Below, in pieces: positions 7,041 to 64,000 of a DNA stretch of 64,000 bases. The DNA is from Verrucomicrobiota bacterium (GTDB lineage Bacteria; Verrucomicrobiota; Verrucomicrobiia; Opitutales; UBA953): contig SUVQ01000008.1 of the NCBI GenBank assembly GCA_015061905.1, forward strand, positions 25,867 through 89,866, in the 5' to 3' direction. The first letter of the stretch is position 1; every line of letters starts with the position of its first letter. A program made the translations under genes and the position numbers. Below the pieces are notes generated by a model. That model made no database searches, was not told the origin of the DNA, and saw nothing but the letters and a program-made list of their open reading frames with translations.

Positions 7041-7140
7041 TTTAGTAGGTTTTAGGAACTTTTAGGTGGTTTTAGTGGGTTTTAGGTGATTTTTGCTAAA
7101 ACCGCCTAAAACTTGCTAAAACTGTCTAAAACTTGTTAAA
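7041..7140. repeat. 10-bp-periodic inverted array (5x TTTAG units then 5x CTAAA-like units), copy 1
   Basis: tttagtaggt tttaggaact tttaggtggt tttagtgggt tttaggtgat / ttttgctaaa accgcctaaa acttgctaaa actgtctaaa acttgttaaa. Confidence 0.95.
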
Positions 7141-7170
7141 TCTCCTGCAGTAACCCTTATTTGTTTAACT

Positions 7171-8367
7171 ATGGATCCTGTACGCAATCCCTTTTCCCCG
7201 GGCGCGGGAACGCCTCCGCCGATGCTTGTCGGGCGGGAAGAAATCTTAATGCAGGGCGATATTTTATTTCGTCGTATTTTAGACGGGCGCTCGGAAAAAA
7301 GCATGATGCTAACGGGATTGAGAGGCGTAGGAAAAACGGTTTTGCTGGGTGTGCTTGAGCGGCAGGCGAAAGAGCTTGGGTTTATGACGATATTTCACGA
7401 GGCGGGTGAGGATAGCCGTGTGGGAGTATTTCTTGCTCAGGGGTTGAGAAAGATTCTTTTGACGTTGGATTCGGCGGCTTCGATGAAGAAACGCGCGAGG
7501 AAGGCGTTGCTTGCGCTTAGAAATTTTGTGGGAACGCTTCGCGTGAATGTCGGGGAGTTCGGGATAAGTGCAGAGCCGCTTTTGGGATATGCGGATAGCG
7601 GGAACTTAGAGGCGGATTTGACGGAACTTCTTGTTTTAGTCGGGGAAGCGGCACAAGAACAGCGAAAGGCTGTAGCAATCTTCATCGATGAAATTCAGTA
7701 TTTTGAGAAAGAGGAGTTCGGCGCACTAATTATGGCGTTTCATCGAATACAGCAACGGAATTTGCCGATGGTATTGGTCGGTGCCGGGCTTCCGATTCTT
7801 CCCGCTCTTGCGGGGGAACTGAAGTCTTATGCAGAGCGTCTTTTTGCGTTCCCGAATGTCGGAACGTTGACACGGGAGGATGCGGTAAAAGCACTTGTTG
7901 TTCCGATTCAAAAAGAATCGGCCGAAATTACGTTTGAGGCGGCAGAGGTTATTTATGAGAAAACGAGCGGGTATCCGTATTTTATTCAAGAATGGGGCTC
8001 TCGCGTTTGGATAATGACTCCGAATGGCGAAAAGATCTCTTCTGATATCGTTGAGCAGGCAACGGAAAGTGTAATTGTTCGGCTGGACGAAAGTTTTTTT
8101 CGAGTCCGTTACGATCGTTTGACGTCCGGCGAAAAGGTATTTTTGAGATATATGGCTGAAATATATCAAGGAGTTCCGATAAAAATGGAAGAGATGGTCA
8201 AAATTGCGGGGAAAAAGTCGGGAACCCTGTCGCAAGTAAAAAGATTGCTGGAAAAAAAAGGTGTAATTTATGCCCCGCGTTACGGCGTGTTTGATTTTAC
8301 TGTGCCGCTTTTTGATGCTTTCATGCGGAGAGTGGTGCCGAAGCTTCCCGAAAATAGGAAGTTTTAG
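7171..8367 (+). CDS. AAA+ ATPase (ATP-binding protein, probable C-terminal winged helix)
   Basis: NPFSPGAG...GRE N-terminus, Walker A GLRGVGKT, Walker B IFIDEIQ, GYPYFIQ, FTVPLF. Confidence 0.85.
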   Translation: MDPVRNPFSPGAGTPPPMLVGREEILMQGDILFRRILDGRSEKSMMLTGLRGVGKTVLLGVLERQAKELGFMTIFHEAGEDSRVGVFLAQGLRKILLTLDSAASMKKRARKALLALRNFVGTLRVNVGEFGISAEPLLGYADSGNLEADLTELLVLVGEAAQEQRKAVAIFIDEIQYFEKEEFGALIMAFHRIQQRNLPMVLVGAGLPILPALAGELKSYAERLFAFPNVGTLTREDAVKALVVPIQKESAEITFEAAEVIYEKTSGYPYFIQEWGSRVWIMTPNGEKISSDIVEQATESVIVRLDESFFRVRYDRLTSGEKVFLRYMAEIYQGVPIKMEEMVKIAGKKSGTLSQVKRLLEKKGVIYAPRYGVFDFTVPLFDAFMRRVVPKLPENRKF

Positions 8368-8441
8368 GGACTTTTAGGTGGTTTTAGTGGGTTTTAGGTG
8401 ATTTTTGCTAAAACCACCTAAAACTTGCTAAAACTGTCTAA
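8361..8441. repeat. 10-bp-periodic inverted array, copy 2 (direct repeat of 7049-7129)
   Basis: 81 bp with 2 mismatches to 7049-7129; contains the ATPase TAG stop (8365-8367). Confidence 0.95.
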
Positions 8442-26513: not shown

Positions 26514-26762
26514 AAGAACCACGGAAGAACGCGGATTTTTTACAGCAAAGAATTTCGCGCCAAGCCGCCAAGCCGCGAAATTAAAAAAAAGAAACCACGA
26601 ATAACCACGAATTTTCACGAATGATTTTAACGCAAAGAAGAAATCAGGGCATCTGCGGAAATCTATTTTATCCGTGGGAAAAATAAACCGCAAAAAACTT
26701 TTGCGTCTTCGCGTCTTTGCGTTTTCGCGCGAGAGCCTTTTGTGTAATTGGTGAAATTTGCG
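26514..26762. repeat. Mosaic of 8/9-bp periodic repeat elements upstream of PEP-CTERM gene
   Basis: ccacggaagaacgcgga; cgccaagccgccaagccgcgaa; ccacgaataaccacgaattttcacgaa; gcgtcttcgcgtctttgcg. Confidence 0.75.
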
Positions 26763-27630: not shown

Positions 27631-27732
27631 TCGCGCAAAGCCGCAAAGTCTTTTAAGAAGTTCTCACGGATTCGCAGAGACACAGAGCTTTTTTTGAGTG
27701 CTTAGCGTCTTCGCGTCTTTGCGCGAGAATCT

Positions 27733-32448: not shown

Positions 32449-32640
32449 AAAATTAACTTCGCGACCTTGCGTGAAATGTTTTTTTGAAATCTCGCGCCAA
32501 GCCGCCAAGCGTTTGGAAGATTTTTAATAAAAACTCTGTGGCTCTGTGTCTCCGTGAGAACTTCTTAAAAAAACTTCGCGACCTTGCGTCTTTGCGCGAA
32601 CTTCTCCTCAAAAAAAACACGTTCCCGCCGCAAATTTCCC

Positions 32641-61204: not shown

Positions 61205-61333
61205 TTTTTCTTGCAAAGTCTTAAATTTTGTCAAAAATAAAGCGGCATCGGCGGGAACGCTTTTACGTTCCCGTGCATTTTTAAACAAAAAACGATTACG
61301 AAACGCTTAAACTAAACAGAAAGAAATAAAGTT

Positions 61334-62038
61334 ATGAAAAAATACGAACAAAAACCCCTGAACTACGCCTTGGACGCGCTCGAGCCGAACATGCAGAAGT
61401 GCACGCTCGAATTTCACTACGGAAAGCACCACGCGGCGTATGTTGCGAACCTGAATGCCGCGCTGGAAAAAGCACCGGAGTTTGAAGCACCGGAGTGTCC
61501 GGCACGCTTGATTCACCACTTGCACCACGTTCCCGAAGCGATTCGCACGGCGGTGCGCAACAACGGCGGTGGGCACGTCAACCACGCGTTTTTCTGGAAA
61601 AGCCTTACGCCGAACGGGCAGGGCGCGCCGGTCGGCGAACTCGCAAAGGCGATAGAAAAAGATTTCGGCTCGTTCGATGCTTTCCGCGAACAGTTTGAAG
61701 CGAAAGCGATGTCGCATTTCGGCGCGGGCTGGGCGTGGCTCATTCTGAAAAAAGACGGTTCGCTCGCCGTTTGTTCGACGCCGAATCAGGATAATCCGCT
61801 CATGCCGGAAAGCGTCGTTCCCGGAATTGAGCGCGGACGCCCGATTCTCGCGCTCGACCTTTGGGAGCATTCCTACTATCTGCAGTATCAGAACCGCAAG
61901 GCGGAATACGTTAAATCGTATTGGAATATTGTGGATTGGGAACAAGCGGAAAAGGTTTATCAAAAGGCACTTGAGCACCGCCGCGCGAAGGCGGAGGGCG
62001 GCTCCTGCGGATGCTCCGGAAAAAGCTGCATGATTTAA
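61334..62038 (+). CDS. sodA: Superoxide dismutase, Mn-type signature
   Basis: HYGKHHAAY, NNGGGHVNH, TPNQDNP, DLWEHSYY; Cys-rich tail. Confidence 0.93.
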   Translation: MKKYEQKPLNYALDALEPNMQKCTLEFHYGKHHAAYVANLNAALEKAPEFEAPECPARLIHHLHHVPEAIRTAVRNNGGGHVNHAFFWKSLTPNGQGAPVGELAKAIEKDFGSFDAFREQFEAKAMSHFGAGWAWLILKKDGSLAVCSTPNQDNPLMPESVVPGIERGRPILALDLWEHSYYLQYQNRKAEYVKSYWNIVDWEQAEKVYQKALEHRRAKAEGGSCGCSGKSCMI

Positions 62039-62068
62039 ACCCGAAATTTCTTAAAAATAAACGCATGG

Positions 62069-62108
62069 CGTTCCCGCGGGGAGATTCCTCGCGGGAACGT
62101 TTTTTTTT
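62069..62108 (+). terminator. Terminator after sodA built from an inverted motif pair
   Basis: cgttcccgcg-gggagattcct-cgcgggaacg + T-run. Confidence 0.85.
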
Positions 62109-62120
62109 ATGTGAATTTCG

Positions 62121-62291
62121 CGCGAGAAAATAAAAACTTTCCTCCTCGCGCAAAGACGCAAAACTGCAAAGCCCTTTGTTTTAACCAAAACAAACCAACC
62201 TAATCTTAAAAAATCTTCGCGCCTTCGCGTCTTCGCGGCTTCGCGCGAAAACAAAAACTTCTCCTCGCGCAAAGACGCAAAAATCGCAAAG
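62121..62291. repeat. Left tandem repeat flank of GxxExxY gene
   Basis: 62142-62221 nearly identical to 62864-62942; 62243-62282 matches 62846-62885. Confidence 0.92.
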
Positions 62292-62292
62292 T

Positions 62293-62682
62293 TCATTCCT
62301 CCAATTCGTTCACAAGGCGAGAAACCGCCTCTTTAAAATACCCTTCACCGAAATTGATTAGAAAACCAAGCTTTAAGCCTGTTAGTTTCAAATAAGTTTG
62401 AAGCTGTTTTTTGTGAGAACGATTTATTTTTTCCACCGATTTAAGTTCGACGATTACACGATTCTCAACAATCAAATCCGCGCGAAACGCATTTTCAAAG
62501 CGCAATTCTTCAAATTCAATTGCAACAGGAACTTGCCGCTCCACCTGAAGCCCTTGTGCTTTAAGGCGTTCATACAAAACCGCTTCATAAACGTTTTCCA
62601 AAAGCCCGACTCCCAATCCCCGGTGGATATCAAATGCCGTATTTACGATTATTTTTCCGATTTCGTTTTCTGTTTTATTCAT
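62293..62682 (-). CDS. GxxExxY family protein (PD-(D/E)XK-like fold)
   Basis: GLLENVY motif, RADLIVE..ELKSVE, QLQTYLK, GFLINFG. Confidence 0.93.
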   Translation of the reverse strand: MNKTENEIGKIIVNTAFDIHRGLGVGLLENVYEAVLYERLKAQGLQVERQVPVAIEFEELRFENAFRADLIVENRVIVELKSVEKINRSHKKQLQTYLKLTGLKLGFLINFGEGYFKEAVSRLVNELEE

Positions 62683-62754
62683 AGCGTAAAGATGAGACGA
62701 AAAGGAGTAGACACGTTCCCGTATCCTTTCGCGAGTCCTTTTTTAAGTTTTCAC

Positions 62755-62955
62755 ATCGCGCAAAGACGCTAAAACGCAAAGCATTTTATTTTAACCAAAA
62801 CAAACTAACCCAACCTCAAAAAAAACTTCGCGACTTCGCGGCTTAGCGCGAAAACAAAAACTTCTCCTCGCGCAAAGACGCAAAACTGCAAAGCCCTTTG
62901 TTTTAACCAAAACAAACCAACCAATCTCAAAAAATCTTCGCGGCTTTGCGCGAGA
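62755..62955. repeat. Right tandem repeat flank of GxxExxY gene (~2 units of ~110 bp)
   Basis: Each unit: tcgcgcaaagacgc...ttaaccaaaacaaac...aaaaaa(t/c)cttcgcg. Confidence 0.92.
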
Positions 62956-63074
62956 TTTTTCGGAACGTTCTCCCTTCGCGCGCAAGAGGGTGCACCTTTA
63001 AGAATCCGTGTTTATCCGTGAAAATCCGTGGTTTTTGTTGCGGATAAATTTCCGCAGAAGTAAAATGTTTCGCG

Positions 63075-64000
63075 ATGGAAGAAATTCTCGTTATTAAACC
63101 CTCTTCACTCGGCGATATTATCCACGCGCTTGTCGTGGTGGAAACTCTGCGTCGCCGGCGCGGGAACGCAGTGCGTGTAACCTGGCTTGTCCGTGATATT
63201 TTTGCGCAGGTTTTGGAAGTTTGTCCGACGGTGGACCGCGTTATTACTTACAATCGAGGCGGAGGCGTGAAGGAGATTTTTCGCGTGGGAAAACAGCTCC
63301 GGCGGGAACGCTTTGATTTGGTGTTGGACTTGCAGGGACTGGCGCGCTCGGCGTTTTGGTCACTTTGCGCTCGCGCGCCCCGGAAAATCGGGCGCGGCGA
63401 CGGACGGGAATTTTCCCGATTCGCATTCCGGGAACTTGCGCCCGCTCCGGCTAAAGGTTTTAAAAAGGCGCACGCCATCGACATTCTTTTGCAGTTCTTA
63501 AAACCGCTCGGGCTTGAGCCGGAAGTTTGCGGGAACGTGGAATTTTCACGTGCGCAGCTTTCGCCGAAAATTCGTGAAATCCTCGCCCCGGACGGCGGGG
63601 AATTTGCGGCTCCGATTTTGCTTTTCCCGGATTCCCGCCGCGCGGAAAAGGAGTGGAAGGGTTTTAAGGCGTTGACGGCGTTGCTGTTGGCAAAATCTCA
63701 GGGCACGCCGATTGTTTGGGTCGGCGGCGGGGATCTCGCTCCCGACGCTTCTTGGGACGCCGTTTACACGGATTTTTATTCGCTGATGGGAAAAACTTCC
63801 CTCATTGACGTGCTGGCATTGATTTCGCGCGCAAAATTTTGCGTAACGAACGACAGCGGACCGATGCACATTGCGGCGGCGATGGGCGTTCCCGTGCTCG
63901 GCGTGTTTGGTCCGACTTCGCCGGAACTCTACGGACCGTTCCCGCCGTCTTCCCCGAAAAACCAAGTGATTTGCGCTCCCGGCGGCGATCTTTCCAAGTT
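63075..64000 (+). CDS. Glycosyltransferase family 9 (heptosyltransferase-like), 3' partial
   Basis: Hand translation MEEILVIKPSSLGDIIH, FDLVLDLQGLARSA, TNDSGPMHIAAAMG..FGPT; no stop before the window end. Confidence 0.92.
   Translation, partial: MEEILVIKPSSLGDIIHALVVVETLRRRRGNAVRVTWLVRDIFAQVLEVCPTVDRVITYNRGGGVKEIFRVGKQLRRERFDLVLDLQGLARSAFWSLCARAPRKIGRGDGREFSRFAFRELAPAPAKGFKKAHAIDILLQFLKPLGLEPEVCGNVEFSRAQLSPKIREILAPDGGEFAAPILLFPDSRRAEKEWKGFKALTALLLAKSQGTPIVWVGGGDLAPDASWDAVYTDFYSLMGKTSLIDVLALISRAKFCVTNDSGPMHIAAAMGVPVLGVFGPTSPELYGPFPPSSPKNQVICAPGGDLSK

Follow-up and report, generated by a model that had tools for sequence, protein, structure and literature searches.

Homing endonuclease genes, whether free-standing or borne by introns or inteins, sit inside their own target, and their PD-(D/E)XK types include I-Ssp6803I. 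They have an intact empty allele, flanking sequence is co-converted with them, and their gain is followed by decay to a pseudogene. The intervening sequences (IVS) of 23S rRNA that bear open reading frames (ORFs) carry four-helix-bundle (S23p) genes within periodic hairpin arms. Among published systems, the Ssn nucleases, which have been shown to cut single-stranded DNA (ssDNA), come nearest with their NTS/SRM repeats to the locus described here (Chenal et al. 2025, PMC11893778); pairs of repetitive extragenic palindromes (REP) with REP-associated tyrosine transposases (RAYTs), together with homing endonuclease genes, are nearest in logic. Here we analysed a gene of the GxxExxY family and the repeats that surround it in a 64,000-nucleotide stretch of DNA (the window, C14:25867-89866) from the 17-contig, 2.08-Mb genome of a Verrucomicrobiota bacterium (G000). 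GxxExxY (PF13366) is a very large protein family that was still of unknown function in a 2012 survey of PD-(D/E)XK nucleases (PMC3424549), and in the papers naming GxxExxY that we consulted we found no link to repeats. The comparison collection comprised 31 genomes in total, G000 and its relatives (designated by other G-numbers), and the closest relative in it was G016, the metagenome-assembled genome (MAG) 'Opitutales bacterium RGIG6493' from sheep rectum. The gene is part of a cassette, a discrete unit that changes place and is bounded by arm repeats. Our favoured reading, to which we assign a probability of roughly 0.6, is that of a homology-guided mobile cassette for which cognate hairpins are the landing sites and whose own nuclease probably drives it in a homing-like manner.

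In the window the gene is the single ORF, on the reverse strand (62293-62682), of an otherwise non-coding gap of about 1 kb between sodA and a heptosyltransferase gene (hepT), which we call site 1. The same site in G016, whose SodA protein is 100% identical to that of this genome, consists of one uninterrupted hairpin unit with no gene; the G016 sequence aligns to window positions 61301-62237 (94.6%) and 62846-64000 (90.5%), with one 117-bp unit common to both alignments. G016 carries the cassette at site 2, about 9 kb away (C9:104508-105057), between a tRNA and a PEP-CTERM/PATR gene and in a different hairpin of the CGCNAAG type from that of site 1. The orthologue of site 2 in the window genome (C2:2287-2813) has a single 3' arm, a spacer and a 5' arm and lacks the gene. 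The cassette, about 550 bp long, has the same order at both occupied sites: a 3'-arm copy upstream (A3up), a 73-nt leader, the gene of the 129-aa nuclease, a second 3'-arm copy downstream (A3down), a spacer and a 5' arm, of which a part belongs to the relocated block (Table 1). The G016 copy of the gene differs by 5 substitutions in 390 nt and by a 1-nt deletion that breaks the frame. An assembly artefact was ruled out, as both states recur in independent assemblies: the intact protein was present in 41 blocks of a public collection, always between sodA and hepT, and the 28 blocks with the frameshifted 69-aa product of G016, which come from independent assemblies, all have it at site 2. An earlier reading of this DNA, made from the sequence only, had suggested a repeat-mediated mobile gene cassette and a search for empty alleles. 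Such alleles were found, reciprocally at sites 1 and 2 between this genome and G016, and with arm-bounded copies that are less diverged than the surrounding host DNA the suggestion is well supported. The reciprocal filled and empty sites are new here and represent one event.

The junctions of the two cassette copies share their markers. The upstream arm reads ...GCGTTTTAGCS... and the downstream arm ...GCGATTTTYGCG... at both occupied sites, and the arms of the empty sites read GCGGTTTTTGCG (G016, site 1) and GCGTTTTTGCG (G000, site 2). A3down is nearly identical to the arm that follows the G016 copy at its other locus (CTTTGCGATTTTCGCGTCTTTGCGCGA), and A3up resembles the arm upstream of the G016 copy (CTTTGCGTTTTAGCCTCTTTGCGCGA) more than it resembles A3down or the arm of either empty site. 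Since the two arm copies are unlike each other and each is nevertheless conserved between the occupied sites, they appear to travel with the cassette and not to result from duplication of a target. The spacer after the gene is gtttttgtttt here and at site 2 of G016, and gttttttatttt at the empty site 2 of this genome; because the spacer at site 2 of G016 matches the window and not its orthologous empty site, it can be regarded as a co-transferred marker. The spacer and arm markers thus accompany the cassette, in one event and over short tracts. The similarity of the moved block breaks off within the 5' arm at one end and, at the other, where the upstream arm reaches its outer edge. Judged from these alignments, the junctions look like those left when a cassette is copied by homology into a related repeat and not like those of cut-and-paste transposition. 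An insertion sequence or a miniature inverted-repeat transposable element (MITE) was rejected, since no transposase is encoded and the target site is not duplicated (across the sites, A3up corresponds to A3up and A3down to A3down).

The age of the copies was estimated from G000 and G016. At fourfold-degenerate sites the cassette gene showed no difference (0/52), against 49 differences at 278 such sites in sodA and hepT (Fisher p = 1.8e-4), and at third codon positions the differences numbered 3 of 129 in the cassette gene, 24 of 234 in sodA and 65 of 308 in hepT. The non-coding parts of the cassette were 92-96% identical; orthologous non-coding flanks were 84-87% identical in three of the four measured, and the fourth, a flank of site 2, was 95.4% identical. 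Given the contrast at fourfold-degenerate sites, the cassette copies are younger than the split between their hosts. At least one of them arrived at its present site after host divergence, which also implies DNA exchange between both lineages. Two ancient paralogues with reciprocal loss are an unlikely explanation for copies that are identical at 52/52 fourfold-degenerate sites.

On these grounds we consider it likely that the gene belongs to a relocatable cassette tied to a cognate repeat family. That the cassette's own nuclease drives its transfer is a tentative proposition, which we hold at somewhat less than even odds. In the proposed mechanism, related strains would exchange DNA, or paralogous hairpins would, and the cassette would then be copied by homology into a cognate hairpin. 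The nuclease would recognise a cognate hairpin that is uninterrupted, through its phased units and probably in single-stranded or extruded form, as the Cas4-like fold of the protein and the asymmetry between strands at this locus, both described below, suggest. It would most likely start the copying by cutting that hairpin, and repair from a cassette-bearing copy would then install the cassette in it, as in homing. Hairpins without a gene would be landing sites and perhaps in part derivatives of the element; the cassette could be lost by recombination between its flanking direct repeats, one unit being left behind, and tandem units could arise and collapse through unequal recombination. The locus resembles homing endonuclease genes in having filled and intact empty alleles with clean boundaries at sites 1 and 2, in the position of the gene inside the sequence it would target, in a filled/empty pattern that is discordant between relatives and in decay to a pseudogene. 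It differs from them in that the putative target is a multi-copy structured repeat and not a unique conserved gene, and no intron or intein is involved.

The identity of the protein as a GxxExxY nuclease-fold protein, proposed from the letters alone, was confirmed. Profile searches with the 129-aa protein gave 132 bits against TIGR04256 (GxxExxY; cut-off 35) and 134.5 bits against PF13366 (PDDEXK_3; cut-off 22), and in an alignment of 44 homologues G26, E29, Y32, D69, E79 and K81 were invariant. A sequence search of the PDB gave no match for this protein, and its structural neighbours come from a fold search with an AlphaFold2 model (pLDDT 95.4): the best match was Cas4 SSO0001 (4ic1; E = 8e-4, TM-score 0.56-0.58), followed by ACE1, lambda exonuclease and MGME1. 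Given these closest folds, the protein is predicted to be a minimal Cas4/RecB-like nuclease core without the Fe-S module. It is the product of the only ORF of the cassette, which encodes no DDE, HUH or serine/tyrosine transposase, and a consensus scan of the 5' leader found no sigma-70-like promoter.

The gene lies within 3.5 tandem units of about 110 bp, namely U1, a spacer with a 3'-arm remnant, U3 and U4 (Table 1). Each unit is a hairpin with arms of tandem CGCNAAG octamers; on the gene strand it begins with a 5' arm of three to four CGCGAAGN octamers, continues with a loop of 43-44 nt and a 3' arm of three CTTTGCGN octamers, and ends with a T-rich spacer of 17 nt. On either side of the gene and its 73-nt leader stands a direct copy of the 26-27-nt 3' arm. 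The left flank ends with tcgcgcaaagacgcaaaaatcgcaaag (62265-62291), one base before the stop codon, and the right flank restarts with tcgcgcaaagacgctaaaacgcaaag (62756-62781), so that both flank sequences quoted in the sequence-only reading are present at the gene edges and the gene does interrupt an array, as it had stated. The alignment of left with right flank scored 184, against a shuffle maximum of 23, and thus greatly exceeds what chance would give. Exactly 1 substitution and 1 indel separate the stretches 62142-62221 and 62864-62942, also as claimed. What did not stand was the description of the array as the gene's own, for its arms belong to a dispersed family with about 77 loci in the genome. 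The single unit of the empty G016 site is the orthologue of U1, and the right part of that unit is orthologous to U4; U4 is 92.6% identical to U1 over 108 aligned bases. No counterpart of U3 was found at site 2 of G016. A CRISPR array was ruled out, since the whole unit of about 110 bp, loop included, is repeated at 78-93% identity and there are no unique spacers.

Table 1. Features of the sodA-hepT interval and of the cassette within it (window coordinates)
Feature	Position	Strand	Description
sodA	61334-62038		left neighbour of the repeat/gene region
sodA intrinsic terminator	62067..62108	+	GGGAACG-type stem then T-run; terminator scan: 16 pairs + T9
U1	62120..62247	-	leader-spacer 62120-62146; arm (CGCAAAGN)x3 62147-62172; 43-nt loop; arm (CTTCGCGN)x4 62215-62247
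Relocated block	62231..62781	-	551 bp, 97.3% identical to G016:C9:104508-105057 (BLAST, alignment)
Spacer + 3'-arm remnant	62248-62291		between U1 and gene
Inter-unit spacer aaaacaaaaacttctcc	62248..62264	-	17 nt; within block 97% identical to the G016 cassette copy
A3down	62265..62291	-	27-nt 3'-arm copy just after the stop codon; gene strand CTTTGCGATTTTTGCGTCTTTGCGCGA
GxxExxY / PDDEXK_3 gene	62293..62682	-	129 aa; catalytic set E29, D69, E79, K81 intact
Cassette 5' leader	62683..62755	-	73 nt; 1 base different from the G016 copy, A3up junction excepted
A3up	62756..62781	-	26-nt 3'-arm copy upstream of the gene; gene strand CTTTGCGTTTTAGCGTCTTTGCGCGA; also the U3 3' arm
U3	62756..62850	-	arm, 44-nt loop, arm (CTTCGCGN)x3 at 62826-62850; diverged, ~78-83% identical to U1
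Spacer + U4	62851..62954	-	U4 62868-62954: arm 62868-62893, loop, arm 62936-62954
Heptosyltransferase gene (hepT)	from 63075 onward		right neighbour of the repeat/gene region

The intrinsic terminator of sodA is kept in G016; it stands outside the repeat array and forms the left end of the intergenic region. Just 5' of the heptosyltransferase start the window contains a small periodic element at 63003-63060, (AATCCGTGNN)x3 followed by the palindrome ttgcggataaatttccgcag, which is likewise kept in G016.

The two strands of the hairpins fold unequally. RNAfold gave -41.5 kcal/mol for the minus strand and -25.5 for the plus strand of U1, -29.7 and -20.2 for U3, and -35.9 and -26.6 for U4. Because the arms differ systematically by one base in each octamer, the gene strand pairs through G.U where the other strand would have A.C mismatches. 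This asymmetry raises the question of whether the repeats are selected for the structure of their RNA, the hairpins being RNase III substrates or terminators that insulate or excise the transcript of the small gene, as in the IVS of 23S rRNA. Such a role would fit the folding of the gene strand, which is better than that of the plus strand by 9-33 kcal/mol through its G.U pairs, the count of 13 wobble pairs on the sense strand against 1 at this locus, and the presence in this genome of IVS-family four-helix-bundle genes between periodic inverted arms in the ATP synthase operon. The arms that flank the gene here, however, are direct and not inverted and so cannot enclose it in a stem, the 17 GxxExxY loci together show no wobble bias towards the sense strand (49 against 34), no Rfam family matches significantly, and both the relocation and the link between arm type and protein are left unexplained, so that we regard selection for RNA structure as very improbable. 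Known RNA families were rejected as an identity of the repeats on the same Rfam result. The cassettes here also share features with ORF-bearing IVS, in that a small gene lies in periodic hairpin arms inserted between or within essential genes and that four-helix-bundle cassettes with 7-nt periodic arms occur in this genome; they differ in the protein family, in the period (8-10 nt), in the direct flanking arms of the focal locus and in the lack of an rRNA context.

The homology-guided mobile cassette draws further support from the other GxxExxY loci, for which the sequence-only reading had asked whether periodic repeats accompany them. All six GxxExxY genes of this genome are framed by repeats: three, including the focal one, lie between direct copies of a hairpin-containing unit, and the other three (three of the five genes besides the focal one) lie between inverted arms of three units each, with types of their own (CGCAGAT, CACGAAT and CACAAAT). 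Most of the 34 loci from this genome and its 30 relatives had such flanks, with scores of 36-238 against shuffle maxima of 20-29. Across phyla, inverted or direct repeats framed 48 of the 68 testable loci (71%) and only 3 of 247 control positions (1.2%) taken from those 68 loci themselves. The nearest relatives of the protein, 55-65% identical and found in Binatia, Victivallales, other Verrucomicrobia and deltaproteobacterial MAGs, have arms of (T)CTCGCG-CARAG units with a period of 8, of the same kind as the focal arms, whereas more distant relatives have arms of AACC-CACRGAG units with a period of 9-10. As close relatives thus share period-8 arms and distant ones carry period-9-10 arms, gene subfamily and arm type are inherited together across phyla.

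Presence and absence of these cassettes vary among congeners at gx_C15, gx_C3, gx_C6b, hb_C15 and the dinD locus. At gx_C15 this genome has unit, gene and unit, G016 has one unit, and G017 has a scar that retains the first ~25 nt of the gene; loss by recombination between flanking units therefore does occur. The gene of gx_C3 is missing with its arms at the corresponding site of G016, which has a 75%-identical gene with the same end motif at another locus. G011 carries a truncated GxxExxY copy. The CACAAAT-armed gene of gx_C6b, in the fabZ-fabI spacer (G000 C6:156500-156960), is common to this genome and G016, where it is a pseudogene, and among congeners (loci L076-L079) the same spacer holds a degenerate arm remnant in G010, a solo CACGGAC hairpin in G011 and a hairpin of the GCAAAT type in G017.

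Genes of other families are framed in a similar way. Three of the four four-helix-bundle genes (TIGR02436) of this genome have arms with a period of 7-8, and two of these genes are in the ATP synthase operon; one four-helix-bundle cassette is absent together with its arms from G010 and G017. The ATP synthase operon (G000 C10:334649-342700) contains three cassettes inserted in periodic hairpins, of which the four-helix-bundle genes lie between atpA and atpG (AGCTTAA arms) and between atpD and atpC (CTGATAA arms). In the atpF-atpH spacer a DinD-like gene is bracketed by direct copies of the 3' arm of a CACGAAT hairpin, as at the focal locus; this spacer has only a solo hairpin in G017 and a zinc-ribbon ORF in G016 and G011. 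Within the window, at 7048-8441, an AAA-ATPase-like ORF (7171-8367, 398 aa) lies between direct copies of a hairpin of about 95 bp (GGTTTTAGGN x4 then CTAAAACNN x4), the second of which provides its stop codon. Only the right flank of this locus was found in G016 and G010 (91% and 98% identical), and the left flank, with a GNAT-like ORF, was not found there.

The CGCNAAG pattern (CGCNAAGNCGCNAAG) occurred 188 times in this genome, at about 77 loci, and its reversed control 4 times. Genome-wide we counted 564 short-period tandem clusters and about 90 periodic hairpins, the latter by pairing based on TRF, which replaced a k-mer-seeded census of inverted repeats that was too strict for imperfect periodic arms (125 matches, 13 periodic). 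Their unit families had periods of 7 (TGAATAA, AGCTTAA, CTGATAA), 8 (CGCNAAG, CACAGAG, AGTGGAGA) and 9-10 (CACGGAT, CACGAAT, CACAAAT). Counts of CGCNAAG arrays were 188 in G000, 75 in G016, 67 in G018, 36 in G019, 18 in G023 and 16 in G029, and at most 12, about the control level, in the other 25 of the 31 genomes, among them twelve of the same genus whose GxxExxY genes have other arm types. A CGCNAAG-armed GxxExxY gene was confirmed in 6/6 enriched genomes, that of G016 being the pseudogene. The abundance of the arrays thus tracks the gene with the matching arms, in answer to the earlier question of whether repeat numbers depend on GxxExxY presence. Cause may run either way: the nuclease may spread the repeats, or cassettes may persist only where landing sites abound.

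A second association concerns PEP-CTERM genes. Of the 77 CGCNAAG loci, 45 (58%) were within 500 bp of an end of a PEP-CTERM ORF, where 5% were expected, and 31 of the 54 PEP-CTERM genes had a CGCNAAG hairpin near an end. Examples of such octamer hairpins in the window are at 26703-26729, 27701-27723 and 32495-32556, and many PEP-CTERM paralogues of about 1 kb are flanked by direct repeats of 60-210 bp that hold CGCNAAG hairpins. This co-location supports a host-side contribution to repeat numbers; because so many loci are at PEP-CTERM gene ends, that gene family may account for these numbers as much as the nuclease does.

Several points weigh against the homology-guided cassette driven by its nuclease. 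Plain RecA-mediated ectopic conversion between dispersed repeats would leave the same footprints without any nuclease, and the proximity of so many hairpins to PEP-CTERM genes suggests that they have a host role or spread with those genes. G016 has kept its 75 arrays although its copy of the gene is a pseudogene, so that the arrays endure there in the absence of an intact cognate gene. Samples of 500 bp from G000 and G016 are between 85% and 98% identical, and a locally young region is therefore not unheard of. The cassette occupies one fixed site within each species, from which it follows that movement is rare. No outgroup keeps synteny at either site, and the order of gain and loss comes from copy age alone: the sodA-hepT arrangement was found among relatives in G016 only, and at site 2 the tRNA site holds an island in G010 and other genes in G011. 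The tRNA at G000 C14:97851 is adjoined by foreign DNA, and its duplicated 3' end is on contig C2 (2287), which indicates an island integrated at the tRNA in G000 that has no counterpart in G016; the same tRNA in G010 is followed by a different insert.

One rival explanation is that the gene is passive cargo, in which case the CGCNAAG hairpins would be host elements (terminators or PEP-CTERM regulatory modules) with the GxxExxY gene merely between them, host homologous recombination between dispersed repeats would copy or delete it, and the function of the nuclease would be unrelated. The clustering at PEP-CTERM genes and the persistence of arrays beside the broken gene of G016 fit this explanation, as do the terminator-like character of the units on the minus strand, the similar framing of other genes (the ATPase ORF at 7171-8367 and the DinD-like gene) and junctions that require homology only. 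It does not explain why arm type goes with protein subfamily even in unrelated phyla, from which these PEP-CTERM genes are missing, nor why 71% of GxxExxY genes are framed by repeats when so few control positions are; moreover, 12 of the 18 other genomes of the genus have background levels of CGCNAAG, which argues that the hairpins are not a general host device of the genus. We consider passive carriage unlikely.

A mobile cassette driven by its nuclease also has to be set against the Ssn system. In both cases a small nuclease gene stands alone between copies of a short structured repeat, tens to hundreds of copies of this repeat are dispersed in the genome that carries the gene, and different homologues are paired with different repeat sequences. 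The differences are that Ssn has a GIY-YIG fold and the predicted nuclease here a Cas4/RecB-like PD-(D/E)XK fold, that a single motif is described for Ssn and arms of three or four 8-nt units are found here, and that relocation of the gene between repeat copies is seen here and not in the available part of the Ssn account. By analogy, the GxxExxY protein could serve the cell as a site-specific single-strand DNase with its cognate repeats across the genome as substrates, for instance by modulating transformation or recombination or by marking self, and would then not promote the mobility of its own gene. Ssn offers the precedent, as its small gene lies between copies of the repeats that the nuclease cuts, of which there are hundreds (PMC11893778), and the fold of ssDNA-processing Cas4/RecB nucleases, the strong asymmetry of the hairpins between strands and the tracking of repeat abundance with gene presence would all be consistent with it. 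Apart from the difference in fold from Ssn, the gene frequently decays among congeners (the frameshift in G016, the gx_C6b pseudogene, the truncation in G011 and the scar in G017), and decay together with site turnover fits a selfish element better than a maintained host function. A cellular role of this kind therefore seems to us improbable.

The REP/RAYT-like partnership put forward in the sequence-only reading held up in part: it passes both of the refutation tests set out with it, since repeat flanks are common and repeat abundance tracks the gene, but the protein has a PD-(D/E)XK fold and is not an HUH Y1 RAYT. The likeness comprises a single-copy gene among cognate palindromic repeats, dispersed copies without a gene and an abundance that tracks the gene; the differences are that RAYTs are HUH Y1 transposases (PF01797) and that the repeats here are periodic, with a unit sequence that varies from cassette to cassette. 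Matches to Y1_Tnp in this genome were at C5:41864 and C5:81300, away from the focal locus, and only one was above the family cut-off. At C5:41864-42211 a RAYT-like Y1 transposase (PF01797, 77.6 bits) occurs with non-periodic REP-like hairpins (ccgcaggtaa...ttacctgcgg), and a classical REP/RAYT pair therefore coexists with the periodic-hairpin cassettes. Integron cassettes are similar in being promoter-poor, single-gene units bounded by imperfect hairpin sites that vary in sequence; unlike them, the elements here form no cassette array at an attI, their hairpins are periodic and their junctions show homology tracts. An integron model was rejected, as the best TIGR02249 match (78.7 bits, cut-off 265) was Xer-like and the genome has no integron integrase.

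It is possible, though on present evidence doubtful, that GxxExxY genes and periodic hairpin arms form a class of homing-type selfish elements across prokaryotes. In such a class a minimal Cas4/RecB-like nuclease would recognise arrays of its own 8-10-nt units in hairpins or ssDNA and cut uninterrupted copies, and repair would copy the cassette in; periodic hairpins without a gene would be landing sites and relics, and the reciprocal sites described here, whose cassette copies postdate the split of their hosts, would give the first trace of a move of this kind. The filled/empty pair in two sister genomes, with its defined junctions, makes the homing hypothesis directly testable with synthetic substrates. 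If GxxExxY genes are the active partner of periodic hairpins, this would account for a class of intergenic repeats that is common in many phyla, would place a second nuclease fold beside the Ssn-type pairs of repeat and nuclease, and would provide a set of small nucleases, each recognising a different short repeated unit, that are potentially useful as tools.

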